A stretch of 64,000 nucleotides of DNA from a virus. Of this stretch, positions 1,683-53,752 are shown in pieces. A program made the translations under genes and the position numbers. The stretch lies in IMG/VR virus record IMGVR_UViG_3300045594_000630. One strand, written 5' to 3'. Below the pieces are notes generated by a model. That model saw only the letters and a list, made by a program, of their open reading frames with translations. It was not told the DNA's origin and did not search any database. Position 1 is the first letter of the stretch. The number at the start of each line of letters is the position of its first letter.

Positions 1683-1756
1683 CGGGTCGTAGCCCAGCTT
1701 GGTAGGGCGCCTCGTTCGGGACGAGGAGGCCGCGGGTTCAAATCCCGCCAACCCGA
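1683..1756 (+). tRNA. tRNA-Pro(CGG)
   Basis: cctcg-ttCGGga-cgagg. Confidence 0.92.
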
Positions 1757-1847
1757 CACGCCGTGGGAACACGATTGTCAACGACCGTGTTATCATGGAT
1801 AACGCCGCGCTTCACGGAGCGTCGATAACTTAAGAATGCACCATCAA

Positions 1848-1921
1848 CGGGATGTAGCGCAGCTTGGTAGCGCGCTTGCTTTGGGAGCAAGATGCCGCAG
1901 GTTCGAATCCTGTCATCCCGA
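1848..1921 (+). tRNA. tRNA-Pro(TGG)
   Basis: cttgc-ttTGGga-gcaag. Confidence 0.95.
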
Positions 1922-2459
1922 CGATGATCGCCTGATTCTCGTGACTGACTGATCGAGTGACGCTCGTGAAGATCAGCCGCGATGGTGATCTGAATAACTG
2001 AATACAGAACTGCTCGCACCAGTTGGAAGCAAAGTGCGCGACGGCCCGGGTACCGGAATGTGAAAGAACTCACCCTGCTTGGTCACGAAGATCACCATGT
2101 AGTCGATGGTGCAGTGACGGAGCGCCTGAATACAGGATCGAGCATGGGGAAGCCATCGCCCTGATTCTTGAAGGTCCGTATGGATCTGATGGAGATGTAC
2201 ATTGTACGTCAGCAACGCGATGATAACTCATGAACGGGATTACCAGCGTCATTCATGGAATGTTGACGACCCGTAGACATAAACAAGTTCCTTCAGATTA
2301 TCTTCAAAACGATGCAGATCTGCGGTCGGTGCGATGCAGATCTGAGGTCGTCGTCCCACCGGTGAGATGCACCGGCAACCGTTGATGATGCTGTGACCGC
2401 ATCATTGACAGCACATGTGGTCATCGTCGTGCTGGCGGACGTGAAACGCCAGTTCTTAT

Positions 2460-2534
2460 TCCCCGGGAGCAACCTTCGGCGGCTGCGATCGACTGTTAAT
2501 CGATAGAGAGCTGGTTCGACTCCAGTCCGGGGAG
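2460..2534 (+). tRNA. tRNA-Asn(GTT), atypical D arm (G8)
   Basis: atcga-ctGTTaa-tcgat; acceptor tccccgg/ccgggga. Confidence 0.8.
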
Positions 2535-2736
2535 CGATGGTTGAAAAGGGCGAAGATTGTTAAAAGATTGCTCATCATTCTGAATCCACGTGGTAGCTCC
2601 TCGTGGACGATGATAGGAAAGTCCGGAATCGAAAACTGATGACGATCATACTCTGGTCAATGTGCCATACAATCGGGAGGTCCATATCGTAATTCAGCGA
2701 GGCCTAGCGAGTAATTGACCTCAAGGTCCATCCAAT

Positions 2737-2813
2737 GCTTTCATGGCCCAATCGGCAGAGGCGCAGGGCACACTGCAGACCTGTTCATACTGGTTCGACT
2801 CCAGTTGGAAGCA
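2737..2813 (+). pseudogene. Leu-body tRNA-like gene with a 10-nt scrambled anticodon loop
   Basis: Body matches 6485-6558; anticodon arm caggg-cacactgcag-acctg. Confidence 0.65.
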
Positions 2814-2926
2814 CGCAGTATCAGTAGGCTATGAGCTGGCAGCGTGACGCAAGTCATCTTGGTTATCTGTGACCACCAGCGAGCTGAATGCAATAGCAGA
2901 CGGGTGAGTGCAAGGCTCACCATCAT

Positions 2927-3011
2927 GGATGATTCGCATAGAGGCCTAGTGCACTTGTCTTGAAAACAAGAGTGGGTCACACCACCGGGGGTTCGAATCC
3001 CTCATCATCCG
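2927..3011 (+). tRNA. tRNA-Ser(TGA)
   Basis: cttgt-ctTGAaa-acaag; long variable arm. Confidence 0.92.
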
Positions 3012-3121
3012 CGACCCGTACGTTGGGTCCATCTGGCGACACGATGGATTGGCGGTCCATCTTCTCCTGGCGGGGGATAGCCGGTTGATGTGATCGCATA
3101 CGGATTGCATCGCATACAGAT

Positions 3122-3206
3122 GCCCTCATGGCTGGAATAGGTAGACGCGGACGGCTCAAACCCGTCTCCCGTAATGGGGATCTCGGTTCGACTCCGAGTG
3201 AGGGTA
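3122..3206 (+). tRNA. tRNA-Leu(CAA)
   Basis: gacgg-ctCAAac-ccgtc; long variable arm. Confidence 0.92.
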
Positions 3207-3471
3207 CGACGAACACATCGGGCGGCTTAATCACCCGTCCGGTCGTGGGCATACATATGTCGCGCGTGGACGTGATTGATCCACGTGGATAGCCCGTTGC
3301 CAGGCATGTCCCGGCGGAAGTTTGATGCAGATTCTGCGTAGTTCGTCTTCCGTTGGGATCACTTGAAGACAGGTGCGGCCCGTTGGCTGCGGTGGAAGTG
3401 GGGTCCGAGTACCCAACGGTACCGGTTAGACTCCGGCTCCGGCGCGTGGGAACTCATCCATCTCCATATCT

Positions 3472-3545
3472 GCTCTCTTAGCCCAATTGGTAGAGGCGAT
3501 AGACCAAGGATCTATTCAGTGCGGGTTCGAGTCCCGTGGAGAGCA
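3472..3545 (+). tRNA. tRNA-Leu(AAG), C33, short variable loop
   Basis: ataga-ccAAGga-tctat; same body as the Leu TAG and CAG genes. Confidence 0.8.
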
Positions 3546-3896
3546 CAGATCTCATGACATCCTTACGGATGTCCTCTGAGATTCAGGGTCGATTCACTGT
3601 GGTGGTGATGAACATGCTCAAGGCCCGTCATGCAAGCATAGGAGTATGGAGCGAAGTTCCTATGTGGCTGCTGGTGCTGCGTAAACTGGTCGCGGTACAC
3701 GAATAACCAGATGATGTCCGGACTACTTGCCGGACAGACATGACAAGCAAGATGCTAACCACTGATTGCTTCCAGCATTAAATTGACTGGATAATGGCGA
3801 GATGGTGAAAGCCCATCGAGTGGAGTTAAAACCCGCGGCTTAATTAACCGTGGGGATCAGGGAGACTATGAATCGATCTGTTCACGCCACGCTTAC

Positions 3897-3969
3897 GCCC
3901 TTATAGCTCAGATGGTAGAGCAGCTGACTCTTAATCAGCGTGTCCGGGGTTCGAGCCCCCGTGAGGGCA
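3897..3969 (+). tRNA. tRNA-Lys(CTT)
   Basis: gctga-ctCTTaa-tcagc. Confidence 0.95.
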
Positions 3970-4017
3970 CTTATGAGCATTGATAGCATTGTGGCGCATT
4001 GATGATCATATGATTAT

Positions 4018-4101
4018 GGATGGTAGGCTGAGCGGTTAAGGCGCCTGTTCGCTAAACAGGTTCGTGTCACAGCGTGGTGGGTTCGACTCCCGCATCATCC
4101 G
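4018..4101 (+). tRNA. tRNA-Ser(GCT) copy 1, C33
   Basis: cctgt-tcGCTaa-acagg; paralog of 11519-11602. Confidence 0.82.
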
Positions 4102-4224
4102 CGGTCGGTAGGGGTTGTCCTCACTGGGCGATCAGCGACCTCATGAGCGCACGCATGGGATCAGTCACAGATCGTTGCAGTGCAGAACCCCTTCAGAAGA
4201 TGGACTCCGTGAAGGTCCACGAAT

Positions 4225-4297
4225 GCCGTCATAGCTCAGATGGTAGAGCGGCGAGCTGAAACCTCGCAGGTCGCTGGTTCAAGTCCAGTTGTCGGCA
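4225..4297 (+). tRNA. tRNA-Phe(GAA)
   Basis: gcgag-ctGAAac-ctcgc. Confidence 0.93.
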
Positions 4298-4298
4298 C

Positions 4299-4382
4299 GG
4301 TGCGGCTGAGCGACGGTCGCTCAGGTGGCCGTAACCCACCCGTTCGTAATGAGCATTGCAGGTTCGAATCCTGTCCGCACCA
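4299..4382 (+). tRNA. tRNA-Tyr(GTA), C33, atypical D arm
   Basis: ggtgg-ccGTAac-ccacc; acceptor ggtgcgg/ccgcacc. Confidence 0.75.
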
Positions 4383-4406
4383 CTCAGATCTGAAACAGAT
4401 CTGTAT

Positions 4407-4477
4407 GCGTCCATCGTATAATGGTAGTACTTGAGCTTCCAAACCTCATGATCTGGGTTCGATTCCTAGTGGGCGTG
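4407..4477 (+). tRNA. tRNA-Trp(CCA), probable (Gly-like D arm)
   Basis: tgagc-ttCCAaa-cctca with a C31-C39 mismatch; G73 and acceptor resembling 7618-7690. Confidence 0.65.
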
Positions 4478-4629
4478 CGAGACCAAGCCGTGAGGTGAGG
4501 TCATGGTTGACTGCATGATCGCCTACAATGCGTGTGGCTAGACACTGAAGTCATGCAGACAGCGTCGTCACTGGTATCGGCGGTGACGGCAACCGGTTCT
4601 CGTGTCCGGCTTACCAAAATACGACCAAT

Positions 4630-4702
4630 GGGGGCATGGCGCAGCTGGTAGCGCAACTCCTCAGCAAGGAGTAGGTCGCGGGTCCGAGTCCCGCTGCTTC
4701 CA
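4630..4702 (+). tRNA. tRNA-Ala(AGC), C33, C55
   Basis: actcc-tcAGCaa-ggagt; G3-U70, A73. Confidence 0.82.
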
Positions 4703-4929
4703 CTTGGATCCATCAAGACAGGGCGGCGTCAGCAGCATGATGGATCCGCGACACGCCGGTGATTGAGATCGGGCTGACTATGTTACAATGGTATTGTCCA
4801 CGAAAACGATGGATCACCCGAAGCCTGATAACCTAATCTAAGTCAATCATCTGGATCCATTGTCCACAGCGTATGCTCAGGATGATGGCAGGATGTCAAA
4901 GTCCCCGCGATGACGATAAACCCGCGAAT

Positions 4930-5010
4930 GCCCCTATGGTAGGAATTGGTAGACACGGTCGACTTAAAATCGATTGCTTAGGCGTCCCGGTTCGAGTCCG
5001 GGTGGGGGTA
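4930..5010 (+). tRNA. tRNA-Leu(TAA)
   Basis: gtcga-ctTAAaa-tcgat. Confidence 0.92.
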
Positions 5011-5125
5011 CAAGGTCGCGCCTAGGCGCGACCGCTCATCGGATCCATGTGATTCGATGAGCATGCAGTACCGTGAGATGATGCGGGTTCGAGTCCGCCT
5101 GGCAATCATTAACGGTGACGGAGTT

Positions 5126-5197
5126 GATCTAGTAACTCAATGGCAGAAGCTACTCCATTTATTGTGGAAATGCGGGTTCGAATCCCGCCTAGTGATC
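5126..5197 (+). pseudogene. degenerate tRNA (loop ttTATtg)
   Basis: Intact T arm gcggg-ttcgaat-cccgc; 2-nt insertion in the acceptor; weak D arm. Confidence 0.45.
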
Positions 5198-5282
5198 CGT
5201 CACAGATGATGCTGTGCGTCAATGGCGCATTGGAATAGATTCAACATTCTAATGGGGCCAGTCATCCAGCGTCCGCATGAAT

Positions 5283-5356
5283 GCTTTCATAGCCCAATAG
5301 GTAGAGGCGATGGATTTAGGATCCATTCAGTGCTGGTTCGAGTCCAGTTGAAAGCA
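5283..5356 (+). tRNA. tRNA-Leu(TAG), short variable loop
   Basis: atgga-ttTAGga-tccat. Confidence 0.9.
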
Positions 5357-5359
5357 CAA

Positions 5360-5446
5360 TGTCCGAATCAACTTAACGGCAGAGCAGCGGCCGAAACGCC
5401 GTGCGCGGGTCATTCCCGGCCTGTAGGGTTCGACTCCCACCGGACA
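5360..5446 (+). pseudogene. class II tRNA-like gene with a 6-nt anticodon loop
   Basis: gcggc-cgaaac-gccgt; variable-arm hairpin; ttcgact T loop. Confidence 0.4.
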
Positions 5447-5587
5447 GGAGCTGTATGCAAGTGGTGACGATCATGAGCATACGGTTCACAGCGTGGCGAA
5501 GATCTTGACGATGATCTTCATCACGCACGTTTGGCTCTATCATCGCTTGGCGATGATTGCAAGGTTCATCCCAAGGAGCCAATTCAT

Positions 5588-5659
5588 GGCCGTGAGGTCC
5601 TACGGTTGGACGCCTGCCTGTCGAGCAGGTTGCAGCGGGTTCAACTCCCGTCATGGTCG
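5588..5659 (+). tRNA. tRNA-Asp(GTC) copy 1
   Basis: cctgc-ctGTCga-gcagg. Confidence 0.88.
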
Positions 5660-5904
5660 CAAGGTGCCTGGTGTCTGCGCCGAGGATCAGCCCCTGGCTG
5701 ATCCATGACACCCGGTGGAAACGGCATGGTGACATGAAAACAGCATGGATCCATGATACGCCCTCCGTCTGTTACTTTCCGTCGGTGATGCTGAGGCGGC
5801 GGGGTTAACGATCTGTATTGTAGCGGATCGCTGCCGGCACGACCACATGGTCTTGAATGGACATGAAGCATCTCACGTGACGTCCGTGAAGCGTCACTTA
5901 AATT

Positions 5905-5984
5905 GGTGCGTTGGCAGAGCGGCAAATGCGGCTGGCTGTAAACCAGCTCTTTCGGGTTCGGGGGTTCGAGTCCCTCACGCACCA
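5905..5984 (+). tRNA. tRNA-Tyr(GTA)
   Basis: gctgg-ctGTAaa-ccagc. Confidence 0.93.
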
Positions 5985-6129
5985 CACAACATGTTTGGAT
6001 GGGTTAAAGGACACCAATGGCCCCATCCTGTTGACAGTGCTCACTGTCAACAGCGTGTGATCGTGCAGTGCAGGTGCCCAGTCGACCACTGCACGGGATA
6101 GTCCTCATGATGACGATAAAAGCATGAAT

Positions 6130-6200
6130 GCCTCTATAGTTCAAAGGAAGAACTTCGGACTTTTAATCCGCAGATCGGATATCGTAATTCCGTGGGGGCA
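6130..6200 (+). tRNA. tRNA-Lys(TTT) with aberrant T loop ATCGTAA
   Basis: tcgga-ctTTTaa-tccgc; acceptor gcctcta/tgggggc. Confidence 0.7.
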
Positions 6201-6484
6201 CGATGGTCATGTGGATTGCAACTGCGTGATCACGACTCGAATCTGCAGATTCGGGAATATGGATGCAAGTGAGCACAAGCCGCTGGTTGTGGTTCGAATC
6301 CCGCTCCTCAATGGTTATACCGGCGAGGGCGCGCCAATCGGTAGAGCGGGCGGCTGAACTCAACTGCATTCATCATGCAAGCATGTGGGGGTGTTCGACT
6401 CCCGCCTAGGGGCTCCATCGTGAGAGCGGTGGACACGCCCTTGGTGGTCTAGGGGTCATGGCGCTTCATATTGCTTGCACTTAT

Positions 6485-6558
6485 GCTTCCATAGCCCAAC
6501 AGGTAGAGGCGCAGGCTTCAGGAGTCTGTCAGTGCCGGTTCGAATCCAGTTGGAAGCA
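6485..6558 (+). tRNA. tRNA-Leu(CAG), short variable loop
   Basis: caggc-ttCAGga-gtctg. Confidence 0.88.
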
Positions 6559-6695
6559 CGGGCCACTAAAGATGTGAGTTCGCTCTGAAATCTAGCTAGA
6601 TACATCAATTGACCAAGGATGGTAACGTTGCGGAGTCATGATCCGTATGACGCGGATGTCACACGATGTTGGCATCATGCATCACCATTCGATAT

Positions 6696-6769
6696 GCTCT
6701 CATAGCCCAATGGATCAGAGCGCTTGTCTACGGAACAAGAGGGTGCGGGTTCGAGTCCCGCTGGGAGCA
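6696..6769 (+). tRNA. tRNA-Arg(ACG)
   Basis: cttgt-ctACGga-acaag. Confidence 0.93.
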
Positions 6770-6795
6770 CCGTGACCACATGGTGTGGTCATTAT

Positions 6796-6866
6796 TGCCC
6801 ATTCGTCTAACGGCAGGACGAAGGTCTTTGGTACCTTTAAAGTTGGTTCGAATCCAGCATGGGCAG
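6796..6866 (+). tRNA. tRNA-Gln(TTG)
   Basis: aaggt-ctTTGgt-acctt. Confidence 0.92.
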
Positions 6867-6867
6867 C

Positions 6868-6940
6868 GCTTCTCTGGCTCAATGGTTACAGCATCTGACT
6901 CTTAATCAGAGGATTGTGGGTTCGATCCCCACGGGGAGCA
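6868..6940 (+). tRNA. tRNA-Lys(CTT) copy 2
   Basis: tctga-ctCTTaa-tcaga. Confidence 0.9.
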
Positions 6941-6974
6941 CTTGGGGACATTCTGGTGACAGATGTCTACCATA

Positions 6975-7014
6975 GGGGCGGCTATATACCATGGTTCAAA
7001 TCCATGGCGCTCCA
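6975..7014 (+). ncRNA. tRNA-Ala-like minihelix (acceptor plus T arm only)
   Basis: ggggcg/cgctcc with G3-U70 and A73; ccatgg-ttcaaat-ccatgg; 8-nt linker replaces the D and anticodon arms. Confidence 0.5.
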
Positions 7015-7056
7015 CGACGGATGATGTCAGATCTGCTCCACATCGTCCTCACGTAT

Positions 7057-7129
7057 TGCTTGATAGCGCAACTGGGAACGCGCTCCGCTCTGGACGGAGA
7101 GATTGCAGGTCCGAATCCTGCTCAAGCAG
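7057..7129 (+). tRNA. tRNA-Gln(CTG), C55
   Basis: ctccg-ctCTGga-cggag. Confidence 0.88.
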
Positions 7130-7217
7130 CTTCACAGGTTTGGTGGCTAGCGTCGGCGGGTTGATACTGCCGACGCCCGTAGCGAGGGAGAGTCCTCGTG
7201 CAGATCTGTGGATTCTT

Positions 7218-7292
7218 GCCCTTGTAGCTCAGCGGATCAGAGCATCGGTCCTCGGAACCGAGTTGTCGCAGGTTCGAATCCTGTCAGGGGCA
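7218..7292 (+). tRNA. tRNA-Arg(TCG), C33
   Basis: tcggt-ccTCGga-accga. Confidence 0.85.
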
Positions 7293-7330
7293 CTGGCGAT
7301 GGTGCAGGCAGTGATGCTTGCGGATCGCCT

Positions 7331-7375
7331 GCAGCGTCACCGGGTCAGGGTGGGAACACAGCAGCCCAGCGCTGT
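7331..7375 (+). ncRNA. ffs: minimal SRP (4.5S-like) RNA, domain IV/helix 8
   Basis: cagcgt-cacc-ggg-tcagg-gtg-GGAA-cac-agcag-ccc-a-gcgctg: GGAA tetraloop with the symmetric and asymmetric loops of the SRP consensus. Confidence 0.8.
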
Positions 7376-7377
7376 TT

Positions 7378-7450
7378 GGGGTTGTAGCTCAGATGGTAGA
7401 GCGCTTCGTTCGCATCGAAGAGGTCGCGGGTTCGACTCCCGCTAATTCCA
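7378..7450 (+). tRNA. tRNA-Ala(CGC)
   Basis: cttcg-ttCGCat-cgaag; G3-U70. Confidence 0.92.
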
Positions 7451-7532
7451 CTGACCTTGGATCTGGTCTTACCATTGATGGGGCGCTTAGCTCCGTCATC
7501 TTCTGTACCTAGGCTGGTCCGAGTGTCTTCAT

Positions 7533-7615
7533 GGTGCGTTGGCAGAACGGCGAATGCAGTCGATCATACAGATCGGCATCTTCGGGATACGGGGGTTCGA
7601 GTCCCTCACGCACCG
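7533..7615 (+). pseudogene. Tyr-body tRNA-like gene with extended anticodon arm and G73
   Basis: Paralog of 5905-5984; arm gtcgatc-ataca-gatcggc. Confidence 0.6.
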
Positions 7616-7617
7616 CA

Positions 7618-7690
7618 TCGTCCGTGGCGTAAATGGTAGCGCAGCGGTCTCCAAAACCGCAGATTGCAGGTTCGAGTCCTGTCGGGCGTG
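7618..7690 (+). tRNA. tRNA-Trp(CCA)
   Basis: gcggt-ctCCAaa-accgc; G73. Confidence 0.9.
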
Positions 7691-7724
7691 CTATGACTGC
7701 AACCTGTAAAAAGGGTAGTCGTAT

Positions 7725-7796
7725 GCCGGTATAGCACAATGGTCAATGCTTCTGCTTAGTAAACAGATGATGATGGTTCGATTCCATCTATCGGCT
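7725..7796 (+). tRNA. tRNA-Thr(AGT)
   Basis: tctgc-ttAGTaa-acaga (C31-A39 mismatch). Confidence 0.82.
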
Positions 7797-7797
7797 C

Positions 7798-7871
7798 GTT
7801 CGCGTGGCGCAGTTGGTTAGCGCGCTTCCATGACACGGAAGAGGTCGCCTGTTCGAGTCAGGCCGTGAGCA
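7798..7871 (+). tRNA. tRNA-Val(GAC)
   Basis: cttcc-atGACac-ggaag. Confidence 0.92.
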
Positions 7872-7872
7872 C

Positions 7873-7945
7873 GCCTCCATAGCTCAGATGGTAGAGCGGC
7901 TCTCTCGTAAAGAGCAGGTCTCCGGTCCGATTCCGGATGGTGGCT
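7873..7945 (+). tRNA. tRNA-Thr(CGT), C55
   Basis: gctct-ctCGTaa-agagc. Confidence 0.9.
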
Positions 7946-7975
7946 CTAGTGGAACAGATCTGTATCCACGATCAT

Positions 7976-8047
7976 GCGGGTATCGTACATCGGTAAGTAC
8001 ATCTTTCTGATGAGAAGAAAAGCGGAGTTCGACTCTCTGTACCCGTA
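7976..8047 (+). tRNA. tRNA-Ile(GAT), Gly-like body
   Basis: tcttt-ctGATga-gaaga; A73. Confidence 0.75.
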
Positions 8048-8071
8048 CTGGTGACAGACTGCTGTCATCAT

Positions 8072-8144
8072 GGGGACGTAACTCAATTGGTAGAGTGCTT
8101 CCCTTGCAAGGAAGATGTAGCGAGTTCGAATCTCGTCGCCTCCA
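8072..8144 (+). tRNA. tRNA-Ala(TGC)
   Basis: cttcc-ctTGCaa-ggaag; G3-U70. Confidence 0.92.
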
Positions 8145-8267
8145 CGGCGCCCGTTCAACGGGCTATGTCATTAGAAGCGTTCTAACGCGCATTAGACGTG
8201 AGACCATCATGAAGATGAGTGTTCATTCATCTTCATGGTTATCTCGCTTAGAACGCAATCTAAGCAT

Positions 8268-8339
8268 CCGGATGTAGTACAACGGTTAGTATAATTGTCT
8301 GATACACAATTGACGATAGTTCAACTCTATCCATCCGGA
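8268..8339 (+). tRNA. tRNA-Ile(GAT)
   Basis: attgt-ctGATac-acaat. Confidence 0.88.
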
Positions 8340-8406
8340 CTATGGATCCATATGATGTGGACATGTGAGCAAGCATTGAGCCCGTCATGATGGATCCATT
8401 CTGCAT

Positions 8407-8480
8407 CGCTGCGTAGCTCAGTTGGTGAGAGCGTTCGACCCATAATCGAGAGGTCGGTGGTTCGAGTCCACCCGTAGTGA
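8407..8480 (+). tRNA. tRNA-Met or Ile2 (CAT), C33
   Basis: ttcga-ccCATaa-tcgag; positions 1-72 paired. Confidence 0.82.
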
Positions 8481-8601
8481 CGATCCTGTTAGCATGACGA
8501 CTGGTCATCTCATGCTGATGGGGTAAGAATGAGAGCAGCGTTGGATTGACCGATCCGCGTGGATTTGCGTCCGTTAGTGGCGTGATCCCCCATTCGATTA
8601 T

Positions 8602-8674
8602 GGTCCTATGGAGCAACGGTCACCTCGTCTGATTCTCAGTCAGAAGATTCCGGGTTCGATTCCCGGTGGGACTA
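8602..8674 (+). tRNA. tRNA-Glu(CTC)
   Basis: tctga-ttCTCag-tcaga. Confidence 0.92.
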
Positions 8675-8892
8675 CGCAGCATTGAGTACATGTCCGGTTC
8701 AATGGGCACATCCAAATAGTCTCTCAGGATCAATGTGAGGATGGGTCAGATCATGATGGAAGTCCTGTAGATCGTGGTCATCATGCTGCACGCAACATAC
8801 GGGTCTAGCGGTCCCGTCGGTGATCATTGCGAGCATTACAGCGCATCGTGCTCGCATGATCTTACAGATCCTCCGTCAATGGATCTTATTAT

Positions 8893-8964
8893 GGCCTTGA
8901 GGTCCTCCGGTTGGACGCCTGCCTGTCGAGCAGGTTGCAGCGGGTTCGATTCCCGTCATGGTCG
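8893..8964 (+). tRNA. tRNA-Asp(GTC) copy 2
   Basis: Near duplicate of 5588-5659; one acceptor mismatch. Confidence 0.85.
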
Positions 8965-8965
8965 C

Positions 8966-9036
8966 CGTGGTGTGGCCGAATGGTTAGGCGGCGGTCTGCA
9001 AAACCGTATAAGTCAGTTCGATTCTGATCACCACGT
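8966..9036 (+). tRNA. tRNA-Cys(GCA)
   Basis: gcggt-ctGCAaa-accgt; U73. Confidence 0.92.
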
Positions 9037-9039
9037 CTT

Positions 9040-9353
9040 GAGTTCCGCTTGACGTCGCGCGTCTAACAGGCGTGAGGAAATTCGGGGCATCATAGGGCAG
9101 GGGTGTGGATTAGACCACCGATCGTGAGATCAGCGATAGCGCCGCAGAGACCATACCGCCGATGGATCCATACGGGTCACAGGCAAGGGTGAAAAGCGTG
9201 AGGTAAGAGCTCACGGGATAATCTTCGCGAGGAGATCCTTGGCAAGCCGACCCTGATGAAACCACAAGTCGTGCTGGGCGGCCCGTCCAATAGCACAGGT
9301 AGCGGGATCAGATGGATGGCGTCTTAGACAGAACTCCGGTTACGGTGGAACTC
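9040..9353 (+). ncRNA. rnpB: RNase P RNA (bacterial type A-like, compact)
   Basis: P1 gagttccgc/gtggaactc; CR-I gaggaaattcgggg; agcgccgcagaga; accgccgatgg; aagggtgaaaag-ggtaagagc; CR-V acagaactccggtta. Confidence 0.9.
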
Positions 9354-9378
9354 ATGAACGATCTGCTCGACACTCCGG

Positions 9379-9407
9379 TTGTCAAGATGCTCGATCAGTG
9401 ATATGAT
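9379..9407 (+). promoter_or_regulatory. internal sigma70-type promoter of the array
   Basis: TTGTCA-17 nt-TATGAT with extended TG. Confidence 0.55.
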
Positions 9408-9488
9408 GGATCATGTTGTTCCTGATGACAACAGAAGCTTGATAACAGGATAGTGATTGACCCGATGAAGTCAGTAAACTCATCATAT

Positions 9489-9562
9489 GCCCGCATAGCC
9501 CAATGGACTAGAGCGCCAGTTTCCTAAACTGTAGGTTGTCGGTTCGAATCCGACTGTGGGCA
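9489..9562 (+). tRNA. tRNA-Arg(CCT)
   Basis: ccagt-ttCCTaa-actgt. Confidence 0.9.
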
Positions 9563-9735
9563 CTTGGACACTCCGGTGAAGCTATCCTCATGTGAAGACG
9601 TAGGGGCTTGACAGGGGCTGGTGGAGTGGACAATCGTGTAGGCAATGCGGTTAAGCGTCGTCAATGGTCGCAAAGTAGGCGGAAGCGTTGACAAGCATGC
9701 CGATCCCAGCAGGATGGCGCCATCTTGCTGGTTAC

Positions 9736-9809
9736 GCCTCGGTAGTCTAATGGATCAAAACGCCACTCCTCTAAAGTGGATAGTATGGGTTCGAATCCCA
9801 TTCGAGGCA
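9736..9809 (+). tRNA. tRNA-Arg(TCT), C33
   Basis: ccact-ccTCTaa-agtgg. Confidence 0.85.
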
Positions 9810-9810
9810 C

Positions 9811-9885
9811 GTGGACTATGGCTCAATGGTAGAGCGACGGATTGTGGCTCCGTAGGTGCGGGTTCGATTCCCGCTAGCCCAACCA
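9811..9885 (+). tRNA. tRNA-His(GTG) with G-1, A73 and encoded CCA
   Basis: acgga-ttGTGgc-tccgt. Confidence 0.88.
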
Positions 9886-9926
9886 CCGATGAGAATGTCA
9901 ACAGATGTTGACAAGAATCATCGTAT

Positions 9927-10001
9927 GGCCCCGCGGTGTGCTTGGTCTGCGCATACGTGACTTTCAATCACATGGTGACGGTTCGAGTCCGTCCGGGGCT
10001 A
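9927..10001 (+). tRNA. tRNA-Glu(TTC)
   Basis: cgtga-ctTTCaa-tcaca. Confidence 0.85.
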
Positions 10002-10030
10002 CCCTCCATGAGACATGGATGAACGATCTT

Positions 10031-10101
10031 GCCCCATTGTCGCCGGTTGCGCAACGATATCTTATAAACATTGTAAGAGGGTTCAACTCCTTCATGGGGT
10101 A
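10031..10101 (+). tRNA. tRNA-Ile(TAT), atypical D arm
   Basis: gatat-ctTATaa-acatt; acceptor gccccat/atggggt; A73. Confidence 0.6.
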
Positions 10102-10266
10102 CTTGTCGGGGAATGGCATAGTCTCCAGCGCACGTCATCCTAGGTGGCGTGGTCAACTGGCGGCAAGCGCCAGCAGATCTGATCTGTCGCTTCCCGTAAG
10201 AACAGCTCCTCTCCCCGACCACATCGTGATATCTTGTACACGACATTGGTATCATGGTGCTTGCAT

Positions 10267-10337
10267 GCGGATGTAGCCCAATGGTAAGGCGTCAGTCTTC
10301 CAAACTGATTACGCGGGTCCGATTCCCGTCATCCGCT
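10267..10337 (+). tRNA. tRNA-Gly(TCC), C55
   Basis: tcagt-ctTCCaa-actga; U73. Confidence 0.9.
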
Positions 10338-10493
10338 CTGAAGGCCAACAGCTCCTGGACTAGCGATCCGAGAGTTGCATAAACGGTGTGGTAGTCTGTT
10401 GGCCTGTAACACGCGCTGCGTCTCATGTGCCGGCAAGCGCCGTCACGCAGGCTATATCGGACACTCACGTGGTGAGACAGGGTGTCCACCAAT

Positions 10494-10566
10494 GCGGACA
10501 TGGTCTAGCTGGTAAGACGCGACCTTCCCAAGGTTGAGATCGCGGGTTCGAGCCCCGTTGTCCGCT
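10494..10566 (+). tRNA. tRNA-Gly(CCC)
   Basis: cgacc-ttCCCaa-ggttg. Confidence 0.92.
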
Positions 10567-10693
10567 CGATCGTCATTGCGGTAATGGCTGGCCGGGCAGT
10601 AATGGCGTTGATACCCGGAACTGCGCTCCTTGTGGATTCGATTGTATCCACGCAGGGTTAGGCGATCACGATGGAGCTTGTCGCCGCCATTAT

Positions 10694-10766
10694 GCTTCCG
10701 TAGCTCAGATGGCAGAGCGCCTCGGTCACATCGAGGATGTCGATGGTTCAAGTCCATTCGGAAGCA
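10694..10766 (+). tRNA. tRNA-Val(CAC)
   Basis: cctcg-gtCACat-cgagg. Confidence 0.92.
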
Positions 10767-10767
10767 C

Positions 10768-10844
10768 TGCGGGGTCGAGTAGCAATTCGGTAGCTCTCGT
10801 GGCTCATACCCACGGTGTTGCAGGTTCAAATCCTGCCCCCGCTA
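10768..10844 (+). tRNA. initiator-like tRNA-fMet(CAT)
   Basis: cgtgg-ctCATac-ccacg; U1-U72 mismatch; only two of the three G-C pairs. Confidence 0.8.
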
Positions 10845-10885
10845 CTAAGATCTGCGCTCATGAACGCAGATCTGCATGCAGTCTT

Positions 10886-10961
10886 GCTCCTGTAGCCCAG
10901 TCCGGCCCAAGGCGTCTGCCTTACACGCAGAAGATCCATGGTTCGAATCCATGTGGGAGCA
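10886..10961 (+). tRNA. tRNA-Val(TAC)
   Basis: tctgc-ctTACac-gcaga. Confidence 0.92.
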
Positions 10962-11105
10962 CGGCGGAACCTACTTGCAAGAGTCATCGTGCTGATAGTT
11001 CCCGAACGGGAGTAAGACGAGTGCAGGGAATGCCCTGGACTCGTCGAGAATTCAATGGTCGACTGGTTCCTTTCGCAATGCTGGCATTCAAGCATTGCAC
11101 TCAAT

Positions 11106-11178
11106 GCGGACATAGCTTAGTTGGTAAAGCGCGACCTTGCCAAGGTCGAGACCGCGGGTTCAAGTCCCGTTGTCCGCT
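11106..11178 (+). tRNA. tRNA-Gly(GCC)
   Basis: cgacc-ttGCCaa-ggtcg. Confidence 0.95.
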
Positions 11179-11182
11179 CTTC

Positions 11183-11255
11183 GCCTTGTTAGCTCAGATG
11201 GTAGAGCGGCCGCCTTGTAAGCGGCAGGTCTCCGGTTCAAGCCCGGAACATGGCT
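11183..11255 (+). tRNA. tRNA-Thr(TGT)
   Basis: gccgc-ctTGTaa-gcggc. Confidence 0.93.
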
Positions 11256-11256
11256 C

Positions 11257-11341
11257 GGATGATTCGCATAGTGGTCGAGTGCACTTGTCTAGAAAACAAG
11301 AGTGGGTCACACCGCCGGGGGTTCGAATCCCTCATCATCCG
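11257..11341 (+). tRNA. tRNA-Ser(AGA)
   Basis: cttgt-ctAGAaa-acaag; near duplicate of Ser(TGA) at 2927. Confidence 0.88.
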
Positions 11342-11518
11342 CTATTGATGATGGATAGATCGGTCTTCAACGATCTTATCAGCAGTCAAGAAACATGATA
11401 GCAGGGATTGAAGATACTTGCTGTCATGGATCGTGGTGGACACGCCCTGGTGCATAGCCAGGAACACGATCTAGTCAGGGTGGCTCCATGCCATCACTGA
11501 CAGCGCCATGATCATTAT

Positions 11519-11602
11519 GGATGGTAGGCTGAGCGGTTAAAGCGCCTCACTGCTAATGAGGTTCGGGTAACACCGTGGCGGGTTCGACTCCCGCATCATC
11601 CG
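11519..11602 (+). tRNA. tRNA-Ser(GCT) copy 2
   Basis: cctca-ctGCTaa-tgagg. Confidence 0.92.
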
Positions 11603-11857
11603 CAAGATCATGCCGGCAGTGATGTGGACATGATCCCTCCGCCGCAGGGGAACTGGGGAGCCGTGTGGGATCCCCGACTGCGGTCATGTCGGCTCTGCCC
11701 ACAGACTGCCGGCATCGTGGAGATCCCTGGTCGCGCAGGTCAAGACGCGCCGTGGAGGCTGGCCGTGCTCCACGATCATCAAAAACCAGGCGGATATGCT
11801 AAACAGAGCTAATAGGAATCTGGGAACCATGCTGTCTGCATGTGAGACAGCATGTAT

Positions 11858-11943
11858 GGAGAGTGTGATCTATTGGTAAGGTCGACCCGCTTCGAATACG
11901 GGCGCCGGTAATACGGTTAGGGGTTCGATTCCCTTACTCTCCG
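11858..11943 (+). tRNA. tRNA-Ser(CGA)
   Basis: cccgc-ttCGAat-acggg; long variable arm; G73. Confidence 0.85.
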
Positions 11944-11958
11944 CAATCATTGTCACGG

Positions 11959-14714: not shown

Positions 14715-14793
14715 CATTGTGATAGCCTTATGATCATACGATGGTAAGATATGTCTTCAACGGGAATGATCTTGTCATGGCGTGACGTTATAA

Positions 14794-15360: not shown

Positions 15361-15512
15361 TGAAGACTGATGGTTCTGAATTCATGGATTGCCGGCACCG
15401 GGCGCTGACAGATCTATAGCCCCATCTTTGGTACCATTGCCGTCATGTATGTTTCGATTGATGCGATGACGGGTGACCATATCGTCATCAAGATCTTGAA
15501 GGAGAAGAGCTG

Positions 15513-16134: not shown

Positions 16135-16629
16135 ATGGCATTGATACAGCAAAGCATTGACCCAGCGACGGGTGAGATCATTGATGACAGTGATGAGTAC
16201 GGGAATAAGATACCGGTCAGTCTTGACGATGGAGCGCAGGTTCCGTCATACGCTCACGGTGATGACGCTGGTGCAGATCTGACATCGGTCGAAGATGTCA
16301 TGATCAATCCCGGGGAGCGGGTTCTTGTCCGCACCGGCGTCCATATCGAACTGGATGCAGATCTGCTTGCATGGGTGACGCCCCGATCCGGTCTTGCCGT
16401 GAAGCACGGCATTACGATCGTGAATGCGCCTGGTCTCATTGACGGCGGGTACCGTGGTGAGATCATGGTCTGCCTTCTGAATACGAGCGGTGAAGCCTAT
16501 CAGGTCAAGAAGGGCGATAAGATCGCACAGCTCGTGATCCAGGAGTACATTCACGCTGGATTCAAGGTGGTTCCAGAACTGCAGGCGAGTGATCGTGAAT
16601 CAGGGGGATTCGGATCAACGGGAAGATGA
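16135..16629 (+). CDS. dut: dUTPase
   Basis: AGADL, PRSGLA, GLIDGGYRGEI, IAQLVI and RESGGFGSTG motifs. Confidence 0.95.
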   Translation: MALIQQSIDPATGEIIDDSDEYGNKIPVSLDDGAQVPSYAHGDDAGADLTSVEDVMINPGERVLVRTGVHIELDADLLAWVTPRSGLAVKHGITIVNAPGLIDGGYRGEIMVCLLNTSGEAYQVKKGDKIAQLVIQEYIHAGFKVVPELQASDRESGGFGSTGR

Positions 16630-17838: not shown

Positions 17839-18392
17839 ACATAATGATGATACTGGCATGGTCCCTGTTCCTGCTGCTTGGGGCGGTCGTGGCCTTCGCG
17901 ATCTATGCCGTTCTCAGGGGTAGGAAGGAAGACAGGGAGTATGAGTCTCTCCGACTGCCATCAATTGCCGGCGATGATGCGTCCGGGGGATTAGACAGCC
18001 TGCAATCATTAAGCGTGAACGACGTCGTCAAGGACGATGACCAGCCGGCTGATGACGTGGACGAGATCCCTGAGCCGGCAGAACCTGTGTCCGCATTGCC
18101 GATGCCAGATGACTACAGATCTGCTCCTCATGATGAAGACAGTCAGTCTTTGCCGATGCCGACGGACGACCGTGACGAGCTTGCCCTTCCGCTGCCGTCT
18201 AGCGAGCCGGAAGATCAGTCCCTCCCGCTTCCTCCTGACGTGACGGGTGACGGCCAAGACGATGGACCGCAGTTTGATCGGCAATTCGATCCGTTGGAGG
18301 GATCTGCGGACGATGCAGACGATCCTGTCGGCAAGATCGACAGCATGATCAATGACGACCATGAGACTAATCCATTCCAGTTCAACTTATAA
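17835..18392 (+). CDS. membrane-anchored acidic Pro-rich protein
   Basis: N-terminal TM helix; four LP[ML]P repeats. Confidence 0.75.
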   Translation: MNIMMILAWSLFLLLGAVVAFAIYAVLRGRKEDREYESLRLPSIAGDDASGGLDSLQSLSVNDVVKDDDQPADDVDEIPEPAEPVSALPMPDDYRSAPHDEDSQSLPMPTDDRDELALPLPSSEPEDQSLPLPPDVTGDGQDDGPQFDRQFDPLEGSADDADDPVGKIDSMINDDHETNPFQFNL

Positions 18393-18408
18393 AGGATCCG
18401 GTGAAGAT

Positions 18409-31145: not shown

Positions 31146-31148
31146 CAT

Positions 31149-36496: not shown

Positions 36497-36540
36497 ATAC
36501 TATTCAGTGACGACAGTTGTCCTCAGATGGAGATGGAACG

Positions 36541-50670: not shown

Positions 50671-50726
50671 TCATCATGGTATGATTGATCATGTTAATAG
50701 GAGCGTATCGATGCAAGGGGAAGACA

Positions 50727-51038
50727 ATGGCTGAGCTTAGCAAGGCTAAGGACAATGAAGTACCAGCGTACGTGACGTGGTGGCTCAAGGACAATGAGTC
50801 TAGGGAGATCGATGAAGACCGGTGCATCGTACTGCAGGCCATGCACGGTGACGACATTGATTACGAGACAGGCCCGTACGTCATCGAATTCGCTGAGCCC
50901 GTAGCCATGAGGTTCTTCTATGCGAACGGACTGGACAGGCTTATTGCTAAGCTGAATGATGATCATCCTGGAGATTCATTCGAGCCGGTGACGGCTAGTG
51001 AAGATCCGTACGCTGATGAAGATGAGTTCTTAATCTGA
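50727..51038 (+). CDS. small acidic hypothetical protein
   Basis: ORF track 50685; SD-supported start MAELSK. Confidence 0.65.
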   Translation: MAELSKAKDNEVPAYVTWWLKDNESREIDEDRCIVLQAMHGDDIDYETGPYVIEFAEPVAMRFFYANGLDRLIAKLNDDHPGDSFEPVTASEDPYADEDEFLI

Positions 51039-51159
51039 CGCAGACAAGATCAGATGGGCGCTGAAGACATCTGGACTCAGCATAAGTCAGCTAGCGTGGT
51101 TGATAGGCGCTTCAGTAGGAATGCTTCAACGATGGATCGTTGGAGATGAAATCCATCCA

Positions 51160-52909
51160 ACAGTTGCTAGTAACCGTTATTCTTGGTTAGACCCGCCGCC
51201 GTTACCGAGCATGCTCGTTCACGGTGGCCCTGGTTACTAGCATGGGCATGACCGTCGCCTCTCGGACGACGAGAGCGGACCGTCTGTACCACGGCGCTCA
51301 ACCCAAACTTGTTATTCTTGCGGAGCTTCCCCAGGCCGCGCAGCGCGAGAGTGAAGCTAGCCGCGTCATCCTTATCCCCCGCGTAACCGCACCTCACGCA
51401 CTTGAATGAGTGCGATCGGGGATCAGCATCATACGCGGCGCGGCATGACGGGCACTCGTGACTCGACCCGGCAGGATCCACCCTCACCATCTTGACGCCA
51501 CGCCTATCGGCGAGGTGCTGGACACGAGCCTGCTGCCGCCCATGACGGAACTTCACCGCGCCGCCGCCAGCCCATGAGAGCTCCTCCATTACGAGCACGT
51601 CACCCGGGCGGCAGTGCTTCACGGCTGAGTCAGCAGCGACCCAATCCATCGCATCCTTCAAGAGCTCCAGCTTCTCGTGAAGATGGATAGTACCCTCCAC
51701 GAGCCTCGGGTTCGCCATGGGCTCATGATCCTGCATGATCCTCGAGAGCTTCGCGAGAGCCTCCCGTTCTTTTAGCTGGAGCGAGATGATGTGACGCTGG
51801 AGTGATGATCCCTCCCGGCTCAGCGTGAGCGGCCTGCTCGTTCCGCCGTTCAGGCTCACGCGCCGTCCGGCTATCACCGCGTGCGACTCCATCCCGATAT
51901 CGAACCCGACGACCGCATTGACGCGCTTGCGTATCGACGGTGCCGTGGACTTGATCGTGAAGGTGAATCGTACGTCGTCCGTCGCCGGGTTGAATGACAC
52001 GGTGTTAACAGTACGTGAGATCTTGGCGCGGATCTTACCAGCCACGTCTTCCTTGTATCCTACGCTGAATGAGTGGCTAGTCTTAGGGACGGCCTGGATC
52101 GTTCCCCGGCTGATCCTGCCAGCCTGGAGCGAGCGGCGGGGGTACCGGGCACGGATCCACGGAGCGTGCCATGCGAAGTCTAGGCGAGCTTGACCGATGT
52201 TCACGTTATCCCAGTGCAAGACTCCAGTCTTACGATCGTACCATGGCTTATTAGAGATCTGCATGGCCATCTTGGAATACGCGATCCGCGCTGACTCCAC
52301 GACGGGGAGTCCTGGCTTACTCTTCATTCTCTGCACGTTAGACCAGAGCTGGTAGTCCAGGTACTCGTACTCGTGCTTCTTCTTGAAGTCCTTGAAGCTT
52401 AATGGGCCTTTATCAGAACGGGCCTCATCAAAGAGCCTGGATCGTTGAGCCCATGGCGCGAGTAAGCGCCATGCTTCTAATTGATCGTTAATCAGGCTCC
52501 ATGCCGTGTTCGACCATGCTTCCGTCCTGCTCTCCTTGACACTTGGAGGGATGATCATGTTCTTGCGAATCAGGGGATCCGAGTACTTGAGGCCAGTAGT
52601 CATGTCATCAGGGTCCAGGCCCTTATTAGCGCTTATGATCTTATTCTGATCCGCCGTCTGGGTTTTCAGAATACTCACGATGTAAGATGGCCAGTCCGTC
52701 ACGCCCGGTTGCCGCTTCCCGGGCGACGGGGTGATGATCGCGCCGCTCAGATTAAGGCTAAGTGCCATGCTGATGGTCTTACGCTTCCTCACGATTATTC
52801 ACCCCTTGACTATGATAATGAATATTATACCATTCAATATCATTATAAGGGTAACTCATTATCACGGAGGTAACATCAATAACAAGAAGACAGGTATCTA
52901 ATGTTTACA
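51160..52909 (-). mobile_element. non-autonomous tnpB-only element, copy 2
   Basis: Same TGTAAAC left end and AACTGT right end as copy 1. Confidence 0.85.
51167..52792 (-). CDS. tnpB: TnpB RNA-guided endonuclease, 541 aa
   Basis: Close paralog of 13085-14707; RuvC D/E/D and zinc finger intact. Confidence 0.85.
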   Translation of the reverse strand: MRKRKTISMALSLNLSGAIITPSPGKRQPGVTDWPSYIVSILKTQTADQNKIISANKGLDPDDMTTGLKYSDPLIRKNMIIPPSVKESRTEAWSNTAWSLINDQLEAWRLLAPWAQRSRLFDEARSDKGPLSFKDFKKKHEYEYLDYQLWSNVQRMKSKPGLPVVESARIAYSKMAMQISNKPWYDRKTGVLHWDNVNIGQARLDFAWHAPWIRARYPRRSLQAGRISRGTIQAVPKTSHSFSVGYKEDVAGKIRAKISRTVNTVSFNPATDDVRFTFTIKSTAPSIRKRVNAVVGFDIGMESHAVIAGRRVSLNGGTSRPLTLSREGSSLQRHIISLQLKEREALAKLSRIMQDHEPMANPRLVEGTIHLHEKLELLKDAMDWVAADSAVKHCRPGDVLVMEELSWAGGGAVKFRHGRQQARVQHLADRRGVKMVRVDPAGSSHECPSCRAAYDADPRSHSFKCVRCGYAGDKDDAASFTLALRGLGKLRKNNKFGLSAVVQTVRSRRPRGDGHAHASNQGHRERACSVTAAGLTKNNGY

Positions 52910-53058
52910 TATGATCAGATCATTGAGAATGCGGTTGCCTTCATACGGTTGTATGATACTGGTGACAGATCGTCAACAAGGAATGCTATCATCAACGTTG
53001 ACAGATCGGGTTCATCACCATATGAAGAGTTCATCAAGAACCGTATAGATCATAAGCG

Positions 53059-53192
53059 CAGATCTGGCATCTGAGGAACGATCTGCGTTCAAGACGTGAC
53101 ATTATACTAGATCGGGCTTTCCGGCATGTGACCGATCTTAATGCGTTCAGAAACATAGGACCTACTACACTTCTGAACATAGCTGGATCTCA
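53059..53192 (-). repeat. 134-bp dispersed repeat, copy B (inverted relative to A)
   Basis: See copy A; contains a gttcagaa/ttctgaac inverted repeat. Confidence 0.85.
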
Positions 53193-53407
53193 TCCGATTG
53201 TAGGTGTCCTGTCTGACGGCCTTCTCGTAAGCTTCCGACGGTTCAGCTGAAAGATCTCGTTCAGATCAATCTGCGGCTTCGGCAATTGCATGATTATGAT
53301 CACAATCATCTTCTAAATGGATGCAGATCTGACTTCAGATTGAGAACAGATCTGTATTAATCACTACCCGGCGCGTTGAAGCCAGATCGGTGATATACTG
53401 GATGTAC

Positions 53408-53752
53408 GGGGTCGAAAGGAATCGATTGATCCTCATAACTGAACAGTGCAAGCCGCTGAACCACGATAGCACAGCGTATAAACTATTCGTGAAATTACAG
53501 AAGCTGCTTACAACACTTCTGACTTCGCTCTAGCAGCGTAGTCCGTGAACATGATGAGGTCACTATCTTGTAGTCATGTTCGCGTCGCAACAAGATAGCG
53601 AGGGCGAGATCGGGTCGACTCGTCTGGTTGCAGACCCGGAACCGAGTACCTAGGCCGATCCATGTCCGGTGGTACTTGTTAAGACATGGGAAGCTTGTAA
53701 TCCACTGCCAGGGCGAGGAGACAAGACCCGGGTTCGAATCCCGGCGGCTCCA
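53408..53752 (+). ncRNA. ssrA: tmRNA
   Basis: 5' GGGGTCGAAAGGAATCGA; 3' T arm and cggctcca with G3-U70; tag frame ending ...AAYNTSDFALAA-stop (53482-53541). Confidence 0.92.

Follow-up and report, generated by a model that had tools for sequence, protein, structure and literature searches.

The DNA analyzed here, called the window, is a stretch of 64,000 nucleotides (nt) from IMG/VR virus record IMGVR_UViG_3300045594_000630. Near its left end lies a dense array of tRNA genes. Embedded in this array are rnpB, the gene for the RNA subunit of ribonuclease P (RNase P), and a small hairpin resembling part of the RNA of the signal recognition particle (SRP); ssrA, the gene for transfer-messenger RNA (tmRNA), is located 42 kb from the array (Table 1). 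An original prediction, made from the sequence alone, described this DNA as a mobile element carrying a near-complete set of housekeeping RNAs, an RNA-only kit that would be served by the proteins of its host. Here we report which of these RNAs are complete and conserved, which proteins accompany them, and what kind of replicon carries them.

The program ARAGORN identified 51 tRNA genes in the array, close to the roughly 50 originally predicted, and Rfam confirmed 45 of them at its gathering score. Their 43 different anticodons represent all 20 amino acids and, under standard wobble pairing, read essentially every sense codon; the only points of doubt are AUA and the assignment of two CAU tRNAs as initiator or elongator. 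The genes are closely packed: ten neighboring tRNA pairs in the window are 0 to 3 nt apart, and the window and its closest complete relative each have ten or eleven such pairs.

Three relatives had arrays that could be compared with that of the window (positions 1683 to 11944): the IMG/VR records G001 (306483 to 319944) and G002 (145134 to 175763), and L041, from a 491-kb contig (1047 to 16899). G001 has a single array of 50 tRNA genes, with rnpB inside it, and no tRNA genes elsewhere in its genome. G002 has 66 tRNA genes plus a tmRNA with a different tag. The 491-kb relative has an array of 51 tRNA genes at the same site and with the same starting order, among them two suppressor-type tRNAs and a gene for a Ro60/TROVE protein. 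An array plus a tmRNA is general in this superfamily. The window and G001 form a subclade that is distinguished by the ribozyme and the hairpin.

In 50 of the 51 tRNA genes of the window the discriminator base and C74 are encoded, but the CCA end is not. The same was true of 49 of the 50 genes in G001, 63 of the 66 in G002, and 49 of the 51 in the 491-kb relative. The rule holds for 95 to 98% of the genes in all four arrays, even in G002, where C makes up only 16% of the bases. Ending the genes at C74 without CCA is a conserved 3'-end design, possibly tied to the CCA-adding enzyme of the element and to the GGU in loop L15 of its RNase P RNA (both described below).

The arrays have other peculiarities. 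tRNAs with A34 (Leu-AAG, Ala-AGC, Thr-AGT, Ser-AGA, and Arg-ACG) replace the G34 isoacceptors in the window (3472 to 11341), and G001 has the same set plus a tRNA called as Ser-ACT. Suppressor-type tRNAs with the anticodons UUA and CUA are found in L041 (9129 to 9204 and 12712 to 12786) and in G002 (152966 to 153037), a sign that stop codons may be reassigned or read through in some branches of the superfamily. The TROVE (Ro60-like) protein of the 491-kb relative is encoded inside the tRNA array (14257 to 15879). Ro60 normally partners Y RNAs, and there may be Y-like RNAs among the spacer RNAs of that array.

The RNase P RNA matched the Rfam model RNaseP_bact_a (RF00010) with 166.5 bits, against a cut-off of 100, over model positions 1 to 367 of 367. 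The first base of rnpB lies 2 nt after a tRNA-Cys gene. A gene had been predicted at 9040 to 9353; what is present is a full-length class-A RNase P RNA whose ends lie a few nucleotides farther out. The G001 rnpB scored 148.4 bits. Aligned to the model, the core blocks of the window RNA read GAGGAAA.UC.GGGC, CAUAGGGCA, AAGGGUGAAAA, GGUAAGAGC, AGGUAG, AGAUG.AUG, and ACAGAAC..GGUUA. The universal core is all there: the P4 helix with its bulged U, the conserved regions CR-I to CR-V, and the L15 GGU that recognizes the tRNA 3' end. The periphery is reduced, with a short P3 and about 25 nt of the P16/P17 region missing.

Conservation of the fold was assessed by comparing two sequences, those of the window and G001, which are ∼68% identical. 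Among the 79 predicted pairs, 19 showed compensatory changes (both sides changed) and none was broken; the strands of P4 pair in both copies, again with compensatory changes. Because all 79 pairs have been kept, 19 of them by compensatory changes, we conclude that rnpB is a selected ribozyme gene and not debris.

This result bears on an alternative, that the tRNAs compensate for codon usage and that rnpB, the SRP hairpin, and the spacer RNAs are passengers, either captured host fragments or remnants of integration sites. In phages, fragments of rnpB or ffs are known as attachment sites (PMC12540744), and huge phages and putative plasmids have large arrays and a tmRNA without rnpB (PMC7162821, PMC8172020). 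However, the rnpB gene of the window covers the whole model and is not a 3' fragment, and it has diverged to ∼68% identity from its G001 counterpart while preserving every predicted pair. In addition, no integrase family was found in the protein family searches of the window, and the SRP hairpin corresponds to the apical domain, not to the end of a gene, and has been relocated within the array with its stem kept. For these reasons we consider it quite unlikely that these RNAs are passengers.

The SRP-like hairpin ends 2 nt before the gene for tRNA-Ala(CGC). It has the signature of helix 8, GGGUCAGGGUG-GGAA-CACAGCAGCCC (GGUCAGG...GGAA...AGCAGCC), in which GGAA is a GNRA tetraloop and GUCAGG/AGCAGC forms the symmetric and asymmetric loops. 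The hairpin that had been predicted is real, but it is smaller than an SRP RNA gene and its score falls below the cut-off of the Rfam family (RF00169); moreover, the 3' third of the match is actually the next tRNA-Ala. In G001 the hairpin is located between a different pair of tRNA genes, with identical loops and 16 of 16 pairs kept, 2 of them by compensatory changes; RF00169 itself gave no match in the G001 array at an E value of ≤0.01. The hairpin is only a mimic of domain IV and may not substitute for 4.5S RNA. That it provides a minimal 4.5S function and that it titrates Ffh seem to us about equally probable.

The tmRNA gene was placed by ARAGORN at 53408 to 53753, with the tag AAYNTSDFALAA followed by a stop codon, and was matched by the Rfam tmRNA model (RF00023) with 73.3 bits against a cut-off of 47. 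Thus, the ssrA gene predicted at 53408 to 53752 was located almost exactly. The acceptor stem, GGGGUCG/CGGCUCC, has a G:U at the third pair, the tag frame ends in ALAA plus a stop, and the tag is identical in G001. Two other conserved RNAs lie in spacers of the array. One is a tRNA-like cloverleaf with a T-arm-like sequence, GGGUUCAACUCC, and an oversized anticodon-like loop, which was missed by both ARAGORN and Rfam. The other, which no Rfam family matches, directly follows an odd tRNA with a four-base anticodon (2737 to 2814).

Table 1. RNA genes and selected protein genes of the window
Feature	Coordinates	Strand	Basis or remark
tRNA array, 51 genes	1683..11944	+	ARAGORN, Rfam
Structured spacer RNA, ~115 nt	2815..2926	+	6 compensatory pairs versus G001 317407-317521
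Mini SRP-RNA (4.5S domain IV/helix 8) hairpin, ~45 nt	7331..7375	+	RF00169 match, conservation in G001
Class-A RNase P RNA, compact, 320 nt	9039..9358	+	Rfam, conservation with G001
tRNA-like cloverleaf, conserved	10031..10100	+	87% identical to G001 310731-310801
tmRNA, tag AAYNTSDFALAA, G3:U70 acceptor stem, no encoded CCA	53408..53755	+	ARAGORN, Rfam
TnpB-like protein, absent from G001	13085..14707	+	Beside array
dUTPase, first gene of block syntenic with relatives	16135..16629	+	Synteny
Divergent sigma-factor-like protein	16750..17838	+	No Pfam match; similarity by protein atlas, features, structure
HU-like DNA-binding protein	18352..18705	+	
CpaF/VirB11-family secretion ATPase (T2SSE)	18758..19945	+	76% identical in G001
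TraG/VirD4-like coupling-protein homolog	19978..22506	+	TraG-D_C, TrwB_AAD_bind
GyrB and GyrA homologs	29022..33551	+	
Sigma-70 region-2 protein	35630..36496	+	
NAD-dependent DNA ligase	36517..38793	+	
Second TnpB-like protein, absent from G001	51167..52792	-	Beside tmRNA
CpaB/RcpC-like protein and TadZ/ParA-like ATPase (Tad-pilus-type genes)	61014..63954	+	

About half of the open reading frames (ORFs) of the window had no Pfam or PHROG match. The sigma-like factors, gyrases, and ligase are as the original prediction described them, but its "conjugation genes" amount to two ATPases, one CpaF/VirB11-like and one TraG/VirD4-like. Other products encoded in the window are an AAA ATPase, YdjM, TelA, Fic-like, ParB-like, DsbA-like, and GmrSD-like proteins, a TET-associated glycosyltransferase, and PIF1. 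Because both TnpB genes are absent from G001, which is otherwise collinear, they are evidently recent insertions beside stable-RNA genes.

The proteins with which these RNAs would have to work had been said to be missing. This is true within the window, but two proteins of translation are encoded 0.4 to 2.4 kb beyond its left edge, on a contig that overlaps the first 1405 bases of the window exactly. These are a CCA-adding enzyme (481 amino acids, with PolyA_pol, RNA-binding, and HD domains) and the initiation factor IF3, both codirectional with the array; a clamp-loader subunit is encoded farther upstream. In G001 and G002, too, a gene for a CCA-adding enzyme adjoins the array or lies within it. 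G001 further encodes a T4-type RNA ligase (RNA_lig_T4_1) and AAA_33 kinase-like proteins. Given these enzymes, the description of the module as RNA only does not hold. On the other hand, protein searches of the whole of G001 and G002 found no RnpA, SmpB, or Ffh/FtsY. Because G001 lacks these proteins as well as EF-Tu-type GTPases and class II synthetase cores, host proteins must serve the RNAs of the element, as had been supposed.

The same absence would be expected if the RNAs were decoys, that is, if the RNase P RNA, the mini-SRP hairpin, and perhaps the tmRNA titrated host RnpA, Ffh, and SmpB and so crippled or redirected tRNA maturation, membrane targeting, and ribosome rescue. The distal helix of SRP RNA is needed for GTPase activation, and the hairpin consists of only the Ffh-binding domain IV, without that helix; the RNase P RNA, for its part, is without the P16/P17 region. 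However, the RNase P RNA has kept every block of the catalytic core, P4 with its bulged U, and the substrate-binding GGU, and its 19 compensatory pairs, spread over the whole fold, indicate more constraint than protein binding alone needs. It is also located among 51 substrates, and the tmRNA retains an intact tag frame and the alanine identity pair. Thus, decoys seem to us an unlikely explanation for the set.

The window belongs to a giant replicon, extrachromosomal and at least 350 kb long, that occurs in bioreactor sludge. Exact-protein matches for the window led to bioreactor-sludge metagenomes, in which they were found on a 262,079-bp JGI contig that starts inside gyrB and on several Logan contigs; the longest contig in the matching protein cluster is 349,703 bp. 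In one sludge run the read depth was even, ∼95× over the window, and because the depth is uniform we take the element to be an abundant, intact population. When 25 kb of the window was compared by megablast with public plasmids and phages, there was no match.

The family to which the element belongs consists of metagenomic replicons of 310 to 540 kb. G001, which IMG/VR labels viral, is 419,707 bp long with direct terminal repeats and is 100% complete by CheckV; G002, also classed as viral, is 309,534 bp. The region from 13 to 64 kb of the window is collinear with 257 to 306 kb of G001, with protein identities of 30 to 77%. Relatives identified by GyrA and the CpaF-like ATPase, with conserved synteny, include the 491-kb contig, which is from the same sample and has a GC content of 44%, and many contigs of 484 to 536 kb from other studies, which have a GC content of 55%; one of these is 536,186 bp. 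GyrA identity to the window is 62% for the 491-kb relative and 48% for G002. Lower-identity relatives of GyrA and the CpaF-like ATPase are on contigs of 570 to 830 kb. Among the relatives the GC content varies from 35% to 55%, and the tmRNA tag varies as well.

Two indications of a host in the candidate phyla radiation (CPR) were considered and set aside. A CpaF-like protein with 44% identity is named "Candidatus Dojkabacteria," but the 6.7-kb contig that encodes it shows the synteny of the element itself and is a binned element fragment. The 570- to 830-kb relatives were entertained as CPR chromosomes, and this idea was dropped; the one neighborhood that was read, on L040 (a 45.6-kb Logan contig that shares one protein with a 683-kb JGI contig), is element-like. 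A protein-pattern scan of genome_contigs for the CpaF-like ATPase gave no match.

No 16S rRNA, EF-Tu-family GTPase, SRP54-family protein, or class II synthetase core (tRNA-synt_2b) was found in G001 or G002, and control genomes gave positive results for these searches. Because both relatives lack all four, the element is not a cellular chromosome, and in this respect the original prediction of a mobile element was right. A related possibility is that the element is an essential secondary chromosome (chromid), holding the only copies of genes missing from a main chromosome that has no tRNA genes, rnpB, ssrA, or ffs. A set this complete (tRNAs for 20 amino acids that read essentially all sense codons, plus three further housekeeping RNAs) is what would be expected of a chromid, as are the replication, repair, and cell wall genes (a replicative DNA polymerase, DnaB, RecA, ribonucleotide reductases, and a class A penicillin-binding protein [PBP]). 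But rnpB was found neither in the array of the 491-kb relative nor anywhere in G002, although both have an array, and the SRP element is merely a 45-nt hairpin. The range of GC content and of tmRNA tags, the viral classification of the relatives, and the fact that about half of the ORFs are orphans also argue against a chromid, and so do several genes typical of mobile elements (TnpB insertions, a zeta toxin, CRISPR-Cas, the TET-associated glycosyltransferase, and an Apyc1-like gene). We therefore find a chromid highly unlikely.

The gene content of G001 gives a fuller picture of the replicon. It encodes a replicative DNA polymerase, DnaB, primase, clamp loader, RecA, SbcCD/Mre11, and two topoisomerases; class I and class III ribonucleotide reductases and ThyX; and a zeta toxin, PhoH, three T2SSE ATPases, an AAA_10 (VirB4-like) ATPase, two DNA/RNA nonspecific endonucleases, and NlpC/P60, CHAP, and lysozyme-type hydrolases. 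There is a type I-E CRISPR-Cas system (Cse1, Cas7, Cas5, Cas3, and Cas1) within ∼325 to 420 kb. A class A PBP with glycosyltransferase and transpeptidase domains (157261 to 159570, minus strand) is conserved in G002 (108497 to 110842); it is a core gene, accompanied by a signal peptidase and several cell wall hydrolases. For a phage or a plasmid, this is unusual gene content.

Whether the element is a phage or a plasmid could be argued either way. No match to Phage_capsid (HK97), Phage_portal, Terminase_6N, or Phage_sheath_1 was found in the whole records of G001 and G002, and a whole-record search for capsids of the nucleocytoplasmic large DNA virus or double-jelly-roll type was likewise negative. 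One weak match to TerL_ATPase was rejected as a terminase, as it proved to be an SbcC-like ATPase. No virion families appeared among the Pfam matches of 151 G001 ORFs or the PHROG matches of 20 window orphans and 20 large G001 ORFs, and sequence searches of the PDB with seven conserved core proteins gave nothing structural; two of the seven are the class A PBP and Mre11/SbcD. The structural proteins of huge phages are often too divergent for such profiles. As for transfer, the element had been thought to be conjugative, a view that is not supported by our searches with the two relaxase families used, Relaxase and TrwC, which gave no match, or by the classification of the relatives as viruses by IMG/VR. 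Giant orphan proteins of 1039, 2370, and 1099 amino acids are encoded in a syntenic block that the distant relatives G001 (160756 to 178759) and G002 (67257 to 80847) share. They had no Pfam, PHROG, or PDB match and may belong to the structural or transfer apparatus that is otherwise missing. A comparable ambiguity is on record: circular 0.5-Mb genomes were called first megaplasmids and then megaphages (Lui et al., PMC8172020).

The element can be compared with several known systems. Huge phages and large putative plasmids share with it a size of 0.3 to 0.7 Mb, dozens of tRNAs, a tmRNA, a CCA-adding enzyme, and an initiation factor, as well as CRISPR-Cas, several sigma factors, ribonucleotide reductases, and many orphan genes (PMC7162821, PMC8172020). 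One of them is a circular genome of 536,059 nt with 74 tRNAs and one tmRNA (Lui et al. 2021, PMC8172020). The structured RNAs described for these elements are tRNAs and tmRNA only, and neither RNase P RNA nor SRP RNA is mentioned (Al-Shayeb et al. 2020, PMC7162821; Lui et al. 2021, PMC8172020). In contrast, the element has a complete rnpB and a 4.5S-like hairpin inside its array. It also differs in that its two complete relatives yielded no family of capsid, portal, terminase, or sheath proteins and lack SmpB, which some huge phages carry.

Phage T4 provides another comparison. Its tRNA cluster, together with the repair enzymes Rnl1 and Pnkp, resembles the array of the element in that the tRNA genes are colocated, lack CCA, and depend on RNase P and a nucleotidyltransferase. 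T4 has 8 tRNAs and uses the RNase P and CCA enzyme of its host, whereas the tRNA set of the element is complete and both the ribozyme and the CCA enzyme are encoded by the element. The T4-type RNA ligase of G001 recalls T4 repair, and a logic of supply and repair fits a conflict with host anticodon nucleases. Dense arrays of 20 to 40 tRNA genes on mobile DNA are also found in the array units of mycobacterial plasmids and cyanobacterial elements; to our knowledge, rnpB, an SRP-like RNA, or tmRNA has not been reported in the same element as these units.

Organelles offer a parallel of another kind. Plastids, cyanelles, and some mitochondria keep tRNAs, rnpB, and sometimes ssrA, and import the protein partners. 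As in the element, the RNA subunits are local, the protein subunits come from another genome, and the RNase P RNAs are compact and miss peripheral helices. Unlike organelles, which keep rRNA and ribosomal protein genes, the element has no 16S rRNA and resembles a mobile or viral replicon.

It is well established that giant phages and plasmids carry tRNAs and tmRNA, but, as far as we know, RNase P RNA has so far been treated as strictly a cellular or organellar gene. Full-text literature searches turned up no complete rnpB on a phage or plasmid, and a blastn search with the RNase P RNA of 50,697 phage and 72,556 plasmid records found none either. Apart from short core matches to mislabeled chromosomes, that search returned a single match, of 35 nt, to a Parabacteroides plasmid. 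Exact-pattern scans for a lineage-specific 24-mer of the RNase P core gave no match in metagenome_contigs or genome_contigs and only G001 in viral_contigs. Our literature and database searches brought up no precedent for a phage or plasmid with an RNase P ribozyme gene.

Our interpretation, to which we assign a probability of about 55%, is that these genes are a conserved stable-RNA module of a giant extrachromosomal lineage, which pairs its RNAs with host proteins to give the element its own translation supply. The module would comprise a complete decoder set of tRNAs from one dense array, the RNase P ribozyme and 4.5S-like hairpin embedded in it, and the tmRNA 42 kb away. We infer that these RNAs are expressed and that they assemble with host RnpA, aminoacyl-tRNA synthetases, EF-Tu, SmpB, and possibly Ffh, while the element would supply the enzymes that finish or protect its tRNAs: the CCA-adding enzyme and IF3 and, in the closest complete relative, the T4-type RNA ligase. 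RNase P would cleave the 5' end of each tRNA and, where genes abut, the same cut would leave the upstream tRNA ending in N73-C74, with which the L15 GGU could pair at C74. The nucleotidyltransferase of the element would then complete the CCA.

A module of this kind would make the translation supply independent of the tRNA genes and the RNase P RNA of the host. The benefit might come when host RNA synthesis is shut off or when host tRNAs are cleaved by defense nucleases, and the tmRNA would keep ribosomes free. A conflict involving host shut-off and tRNA-directed defense fits because G001 encodes the RNA ligase and two DNA/RNA nonspecific endonucleases.

Several observations weigh against this interpretation. 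The search for rnpB was negative in the part of the 491-kb relative that was covered, its array region, and in all of G002; because relatives with equivalent arrays show no rnpB, the gene is not essential to such a lifestyle. The hairpin scored 38.6 bits with RF00169, below the cut-off of 40 (E = 2e-5). Its basal stem below the loops is ∼7 bp, it has no long helix-5 stem or distal end, its length of ∼45 nt compares with ∼100 nt or more for the family, and its tetraloop in G001 is GAAG, which is not a GNRA. Scans of the array for promoters and terminators did no better than scans of shuffled sequences. A look-up of sequencing runs for the array and rnpB found no run on record as RNA; a single 204-nt contig was recovered inside rnpB, with nothing over the other 19.8 kb, and as the RNA nature of that run is a guess, it is evidence neither way. 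Finally, the interpretation assumes that the host carries copies of these RNAs itself.

A bolder version of the interpretation is that this is a new kind of giant element, without recognizable virion or relaxase genes, that encodes the entire RNA contribution to the supply and maturation of tRNAs. In such an element a working RNase P ribozyme would act with host RnpA on abutted precursors ending in C74, and a minimal SRP RNA would reprogram host Ffh. We consider this version doubtful; such a ribozyme would be the first catalytic housekeeping RNA on a mobile element. An intact, conserved rnpB in a mobile tRNA operon would show that takeover extends beyond the supply of tRNAs to their 5' maturation. 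A compact natural ribozyme of 320 nt, without P16/P17, would have to function with an RnpA that is not its own, and the boundary between large mobile elements and reduced genomes would be crossed on the RNA side first. The mini-SRP hairpin is a testable natural experiment on how little RNA suffices for 4.5S function, and the tRNA ends with C74 alone are one on 3'-end processing. Metagenome bins are checked for completeness by their RNase P RNA and full sets of tRNAs, and such elements can make these checks misleading.

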